Of a stretch of DNA of 64,000 nucleotides, positions 1,526-2,415 are shown piece after piece (position 1 is the first letter of the stretch; each line of letters starts with the position of its first letter). Source of the DNA: Escherichia coli (GTDB lineage: Bacteria > Pseudomonadota > Gammaproteobacteria > Enterobacterales > Enterobacteriaceae); NCBI RefSeq assembly GCF_016026235.1, contig NZ_CP065613.1, one strand, 5' to 3'. A program made the position numbers and the translations under genes. The notes beneath the pieces are model-generated. The model had not been told where the DNA came from. It saw only the letters and a list, made by a program, of their open reading frames with translations, and ran no database searches.

Positions 1526-2415
1526 GTGGTACGGCGTTTAACTTCTCCGCGGCTCGAATTTGAAGCTGCGGCAATTTATGAATATCCCGAACATTTACGT
1601 TCATTCCTTAATGACTTACCCACCCGACCAGGGGTGTATCTGTTTCATGGCGAAAGTGACACCATGCCGCTCTATATCGGCAAAAGCGTTAATATCCGCA
1701 GTCGGGTGCTTTCTCATTTACGCACCCCGGATGAAGCCGCCATGCTACGGCAATCCCGGCGAATTAGCTGGATCTGCACCGCAGGCGAAATCGGCGCTCT
1801 GCTCCTTGAAGCGCGATTAATCAAAGAACAACAGCCGCTGTTTAATAAACGGTTGCGCCGCAATCGCCAGCTCTGTGCCCTGCAATTAAATGAAAAGCGC
1901 GTCGATGTGGTGTATGCCAAAGAGGTGGATTTTTCACAAGCCCCCAACCTGTTTGGCCTGTTTGCCAATAGGCGCGCAGCTTTGCAAGCATTGCAGAGCA
2001 TCGCTGATGAACAAAAACTTTGTTATGGCCTGTTGGGACTGGAACCGTTAAGCCGCGGGCGTGCTTGTTTTCGTTCTGCATTAAAACGTTGCGCTGGGGC
2101 GTGTTGCGGTAAAGAGAGCCATGAGGAACATGCGCTACGCTTGCGCGCCAGTCTCTGGAGCGTTTGCGGGTGGTGTGTTGGCCTTGGCAAGGTGCGGTGG
2201 CACTGAAAGAACAGCACCCGGAAATGACTCAATATCATATTATTCAAAACTGGCTGTGGCTGGGGGCGGTTAATTCGCTGGAAGAAGCGACAACGTTAAT
2301 TCGGACACCCGCCGGGTTTGATCACGACGGTTATAAAATTCTTTGTAAGCCGCTGCTTTCCGGTAACTATGAAATTACTGAACTTGATCCGGCGAATGAC
2401 CAGCGAGCCAGTTGA
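1526..2415 (+). pseudogene. cho: UvrC-homologue excision nuclease Cho, interrupted by a +2 bp frameshift
   Basis: GTG-start ORF 1526-2206 (226 aa) stops early; the C-terminal part continues in another frame as ORF 2164-2415. Total span is 888 nt (295 aa plus stop) plus 2. Extra GC sits in the GCGCGC run at 2143-2148. Confidence 0.75.

Follow-up and report, generated by a model that had tools for sequence, protein, structure and literature searches.

The window, by which we mean the whole 64,000-nucleotide stretch of Escherichia coli DNA that was analysed, carries the gene order osmE-nadE-cho-ves-spy-astE, which is the usual E. coli arrangement as judged from annotated orthologous loci. Cho is an SOS-induced homologue of UvrC, and UvrC itself provides the main route of nucleotide excision repair. 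In the window the cho frame begins at GTG 1526 and is ended after 226 codons by a premature TGA at 2204-2206, and the remainder of Cho is encoded in a different frame that runs to 2415. An earlier note made from the sequence alone had described this arrangement, and both open reading frames were confirmed. The full span, 1526-2415, is 890 nucleotides, or 296 codons plus 2 nucleotides, in agreement with the same note's reading of it as the expected number of codons plus two. The features of the locus, together with an insertion sequence found elsewhere in the window, are collected in Table 1.

Table 1. Features of the cho locus and an IS1 insertion, in window coordinates.
Feature	Position	Strand	Details
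LexA (SOS) box-like motif upstream of cho	1495-1510	+	CTG-N10-CAG, CTGGATAGATAACCAG; read from the sequence; intact
Truncated cho open reading frame	1526-2206	+	GTG start; 207 native and 19 out-of-frame codons, then stop; 226 aa
GCGCGC run with extra GC dinucleotide	2143-2148	+	From alignments with intact alleles (GCGC)
Out-of-frame tail of truncated product	2147-2206	+	Codons 208-226, ASLWSVCGWCVGLGKVRWH, plus TGA 2204-2206
Stranded 3' part of cho, other frame	2149-2415	+	QSLERLRVVCWPW...RAS; Cho profile positions 208-287, 142 bits
ves	2375-2950	-	Orthologous-locus annotation, coordinates moved via alignment; open reading frame present in window
IS1 in ydjH (sugar kinase)	34905-35672		9-bp target duplication GCGGCACCT at 34896-34904 and 35673-35681

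Where intact cho reads TTGCGCCAG, the aligned window reads TTGCGCGCCAG, and an extra GC is the sole difference in length: the window has three GC units (cttGCGCGCcag) and the intact alleles have two. Compared with the intact cho of E. coli O145 RM9872, the window differs by 1 SNP and one 2-base gap, which is set at window 2143-2144 by the aligner's choice, the true site inside the GC run being ambiguous; an identical 2-base gap was recovered in the alignment with strain FDAARGOS_943, which is considered below. The earlier placement of the extra dinucleotide in the GC repeat was correct, although the rendering of that repeat as ttgcGCGCGCca contained one unit too many.

The open reading frame of the second piece occupies 2164-2415, is readable from 2149, and encodes QSLERLRVVCWPWQGAVALKEQ...DQRAS. 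A GTG at 2170, nine nucleotides downstream of a GGAG at 2157-2160, is a possible internal start for this stranded part. The neighbouring ves gene is convergent to cho, with the original 3' ends of the two genes overlapping by 41 nt (2375-2415), and is unaffected by the insertion. The intergenic region between nadE and cho also holds the sole Rfam match in the window, to the ES036 (CssrF) sRNA at 1376-1418 on the forward strand, with 38 bits, just over the gathering score of 37.6. As the SOS box-like motif upstream of cho is intact and cho is described as LexA-regulated (PMC3820734), SOS induction probably still leads to transcription of the broken gene, and the truncated protein is probably still made in the SOS response.

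What the truncated product keeps and loses

Orthodox Cho consists of a GIY-YIG domain, a four-cysteine region and a unique C-terminal domain (ChoCTD), the last of which replaces the UvrB-binding, EndoV and HhH module of UvrC (PMC1564403). The N-terminal GIY-YIG nuclease domain and the Cys-rich (C4 / UvrC_M) region are both present in the 226-aa product. The N-terminal domains of UvrC in the PDB match Cho residues 23-111, homology to UvrC (TIGR00194 uvrC) is limited to Cho residues 26-203, and the precomputed Pfam labels place PF27096 (UvrC_M) on the first piece and PF27115 (Cho_C) on the stranded second piece, where gene callers call an 81-aa gene. In a Pfam-A scan of intact Cho, with a library that lacks UvrC_M and Cho_C, the sole match was a weak one to GIY-YIG (E = 0.1).

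The native sequence stops after Arg207, such that 88 native residues (208-295) are gone, 19 aberrant residues are gained, and the product is 69 residues shorter than intact Cho. The earlier estimate of about 70 lost C-terminal residues is thus right as a net figure and too low for the native residues. Searched against the NCBIfam family for excinuclease Cho (NF007833), the 226-aa product reaches 425 bits and covers profile positions 1-213 out of 289. This is above the curated equivalog cut-off of 367 bits; an intact allele reaches 579.6 bits and covers positions 1-287. The C-terminal domain expected of Cho is missing from the product, with the frame breaking at codon 208 and the domain lying in the other frame. 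The locus is cho, but the Cho that it encodes is not intact.

[quoted passage not shown] The Cho of E. coli makes the 3' incision only, at the ninth phosphodiester bond and in a UvrAB-dependent manner; a link between Cho and the repair of interstrand cross-links has also been described (PMC10085695). Removal of the C-terminal domain, with its putative role in UvrB docking, would be expected to abolish productive UvrB-DNA engagement and hence Cho activity. With its GIY-YIG domain intact, the truncated protein might keep some activity.

Distribution of the insertion

Of 5,426 complete E. coli genomes, 5,425 had a cho match in a megablast search with the gene, none of them at 100% identity. All 40 of the best matches listed span 888 bases as against the 890 of the query, and at the DNA level the cho of the window is 99.7% identical to intact alleles. 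A 91-base probe centred on no other variant than this site matched 4,822 complete genomes, none at 99% identity or above, with the best matches listed spanning 89 of the 91 bases; a 36-base probe, so placed that each of its 28-mer seeds includes the insertion, had no match among the 5,426 complete genomes. The insertion allele is absent from the complete RefSeq E. coli genomes (n = 5,426). Reference alleles with the same GCGCGC run in a continuous frame, which the earlier note had named as the observation that would speak against a frameshift, were looked for and found in 0 of 5,426 complete genomes, and GCGCGC was rejected as a normal continuous-frame variant, as no complete genome carries the run.

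The allele is nonetheless shared by more than one assembly. The exact 226-aa product occurs in 28 blocks of the assembly collection and in at least 24 contigs, with carriers that include NCBI STL96608.1 (a 4.56-Mb contig), GCA_902503985.1 and assemblies of SRA runs such as SRR13627093. The SRR13627093 contig, taken from Logan, is 100% identical to window 1-5206 with GCGCGC included, and GCA_902503985.1 combines GCGCGC with a single SNP, at window 3599. As at least two genotypes from separate projects share the GC insertion, it is inherited and not an error. The earlier note had suggested a strain-specific pseudogene; the allele, carried by at least 24 contigs and by two or more genotypes, is specific to a lineage rather than to a strain.

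The intact protein, reconstructed without the extra GC, finds exact matches in 405 blocks. The flanks of the intact-protein carriers listed are 1.5-2.4% diverged from the window, a divergence that says nothing on reversion within the lineage; the intact protein allele is therefore old and widespread, and the frameshifted form is a recent derivative of it. No relevant paper on pseudogenes of cho in E. coli turned up in a literature search.

The closest complete genome is that of FDAARGOS_943 (region compared, NZ_CP065615.1 911151-980131), which is 99.9% identical to the window, or about 0.07% diverged, has a GCGC run, and has cho annotated as intact. Over the 64 kb there are 42 SNPs between the two and no more than two small indels. 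In each of these it is the window that has the added sequence, a GC in cho and an A at position 17521. Since a relative this close has an intact cho, the GC insertion is recent and confined to one lineage, having arisen after the split from FDAARGOS_943. The stranded 3' part of cho carries no further mutations, the event being too recent for informative decay.

The second small indel breaks ynjE (thiosulfate sulfurtransferase, window 17481-18788), with the added A falling in codon 15, inside the signal peptide. It is found in 0 of the 5,423 matching complete E. coli genomes, and the 357-aa product of the resulting open reading frame is found in 27 blocks of independent assemblies, among them the SRR13627093 contig that carries the cho allele. 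By these comparisons ynjE is another pseudogene private to the lineage, the second after cho. Further, the IS1 in ydjH (Table 1) is 100% identical to an IS1 that FDAARGOS_943 has in its ydjE-ydjF intergenic region, and the ydjH of FDAARGOS_943 has no IS1. FDAARGOS_943 has lesions of its own in the same 64 kb, namely an internal stop in astE, an IS1 in ydjK and an IS5 fragment in cdgI, as well as two intergenic IS1 copies and an IS66. The FDAARGOS_943 lesions are all missing from the window, and the decay of the two sister lineages is therefore independent.

Other natural losses of cho

The 90% cluster of truncated Cho proteins holds further independent disruptions. In one allele (P0003), a 291-bp deletion equivalent to window 2197-2487 (locus L008, 1001-1681) takes the 3' ends of both cho and ves; it is a much commoner allele, found in 224 blocks, and its background cho is only ~96% identical to that of the window. 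Another (P0004) is a duplication allele that ends in the same out-of-frame tail as the product encoded in the window. In the megablast search, the cho match covered less than 80% of the gene in only 7 of 5,425 complete genomes. Judged by this loss of coverage, large cho deletions are rare among complete genomes.

Discussion

We conclude that a genuine, inherited frameshift, fixed in one recent E. coli lineage, has made cho a pseudogene there, with the GC duplication likely produced by slippage, and we give this explanation a probability of roughly 0.87. The tandem duplication of one unit in a short repeat is the classic signature of replication slippage, and the extra GC unit would most likely have been added in this way to the short GCGC run. 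Translation would then leave the native frame after Arg207, read 19 aberrant codons and stop, with loss of the Cho-dependent 3' incision as the most likely consequence. Such a loss would be tolerated, and probably neutral, because UvrC supplies the main nucleotide excision repair. The little effect of a cho deletion in one assay described in PMC3820734 fits a tolerated loss, and the event also fits the ongoing gene decay in the lineage. The earlier note had listed a genuine pseudogene and slippage in the dinucleotide repeat as separate options, but these origins do not compete, slippage being the likely cause and the pseudogene the outcome. Two marks of a fixed frameshift pseudogene are found together here, the frame being disrupted by a small indel relative to intact orthologues and the disruption recurring in independent assemblies.

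An alternative that we consider unlikely is that the truncated or split Cho still works, either with the N-terminal fragment acting alone or with a C-terminal domain started at GTG 2170 reassembling with it. Both the catalytic domain and the Cys-rich region are intact, as is the SOS box, the called 81-aa open reading frame with Cho_C overlaps the end of the first frame, and the break lies at a domain boundary of the published architecture (PMC1564403). A construct of the N-terminal half of UvrC that incises DNA in D. radiodurans (PMC10085695) also counts in favour of a working fragment. However, the first piece would have to work with 19 aberrant Cys- and Trp-rich residues attached to it. Moreover, other lineages have deleted the same region outright and this lineage is decaying at other loci, and neutral loss therefore fits better than a split gene that is being maintained.

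It is likewise improbable, and slightly the more so, that the loss of the C-terminal part is non-neutral, whether because Cho is repeatedly inactivated as a costly SOS nuclease or because the remaining fragment serves as a UvrB-independent nuclease or one of altered specificity. If this were true, the +GC insertion, the 291-bp cho-ves deletion and the duplication allele would represent recurrent loss in independent lineages from a niche cost. The independent losses of cho in other lineages suggest to us that E. coli can do without the gene in nature, which agrees with the mild phenotype reported on its deletion.

The proposal that the source assembly introduced the extra GC as an artefact, and that the strain has an intact cho, is very unlikely. 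In its favour, none of the 5,426 complete RefSeq E. coli genomes has the allele, and one of the carriers is a single 4.56-Mb contig that may be an indel-prone long-read assembly. Against this, the identical insertion occurs in separate projects and samples (SRR13627093, GCA_902503985.1 and STL96608.1), and one carrier has a nearby SNP, so that it is not reused data. The gain of a dinucleotide is atypical of homopolymer errors, and of the only two small indels in 64 kb relative to FDAARGOS_943 the second also recurs in independent assemblies. Sequencing error, the remaining origin proposed in the earlier note, was rejected on the identical truncated product and DNA in independent assemblies.

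Just as improbable is the idea that the GC run is a contingency repeat by which cho is switched on and off in a reversible, phase-variable manner. One unit has indeed been added to a dinucleotide repeat, but the tract has only 2 to 3 units, and known contingency repeats are far longer than this. The extra unit is found in none of the 4,822 probe-matched genomes, and both of the lineage members examined have three units; a close relative with a mixed state was not found among the intact-allele carriers listed, which are 1.5-2.4% diverged. A long tract that varies in length among close relatives, as expected of a contingency locus, was not what we found.

Least probable of all is a programmed ribosomal frameshift (+1 or -2) that restores full-length Cho: the two frames overlap over 2149-2206, where a shift could join them, but there is no stimulatory RNA structure (fold z = -0.77), no prfB-like slippery site was seen on reading the overlap zone, and the orthologues are in one continuous frame, so that any recoding signal would need to have appeared with the insertion; the slippery site, stimulatory element and conserved split frame of programmed frameshifting are not found here.

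With cho taken as an inherited frameshifted pseudogene, it should be annotated as such, and is neither an error to be corrected nor two genes. Together, the GC in cho, the A in ynjE and the IS1 in ydjH make a clean marker of one small E. coli lineage, and its strains are natural mutants of cho in which the nuclease domain and the SOS box are retained.

The locus is like that of K-12 Cho (ydjQ) and of the NF007833 family in its position, in the order nadE-cho-ves-spy, in its SOS box-like motif, and in the GIY-YIG and Cys-rich parts of the protein. With two private frameshifts and one IS1 in 64 kb, the window also resembles the gene decay of IS-rich, niche-restricted E. coli and of the Shigella type, the likeness being judged over these 64 kb. 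Like the allele in the window, the deletion (P0003) and duplication (P0004) alleles cut Cho short in the same region, at about 226-235 aa, with the C-terminal domain gone; unlike its GC insertion, they are independent events that arose by other mechanisms and on other allele backgrounds. The frameshift in the window is a new allele of a familiar event, and represents ordinary gene decay with no new mechanism.
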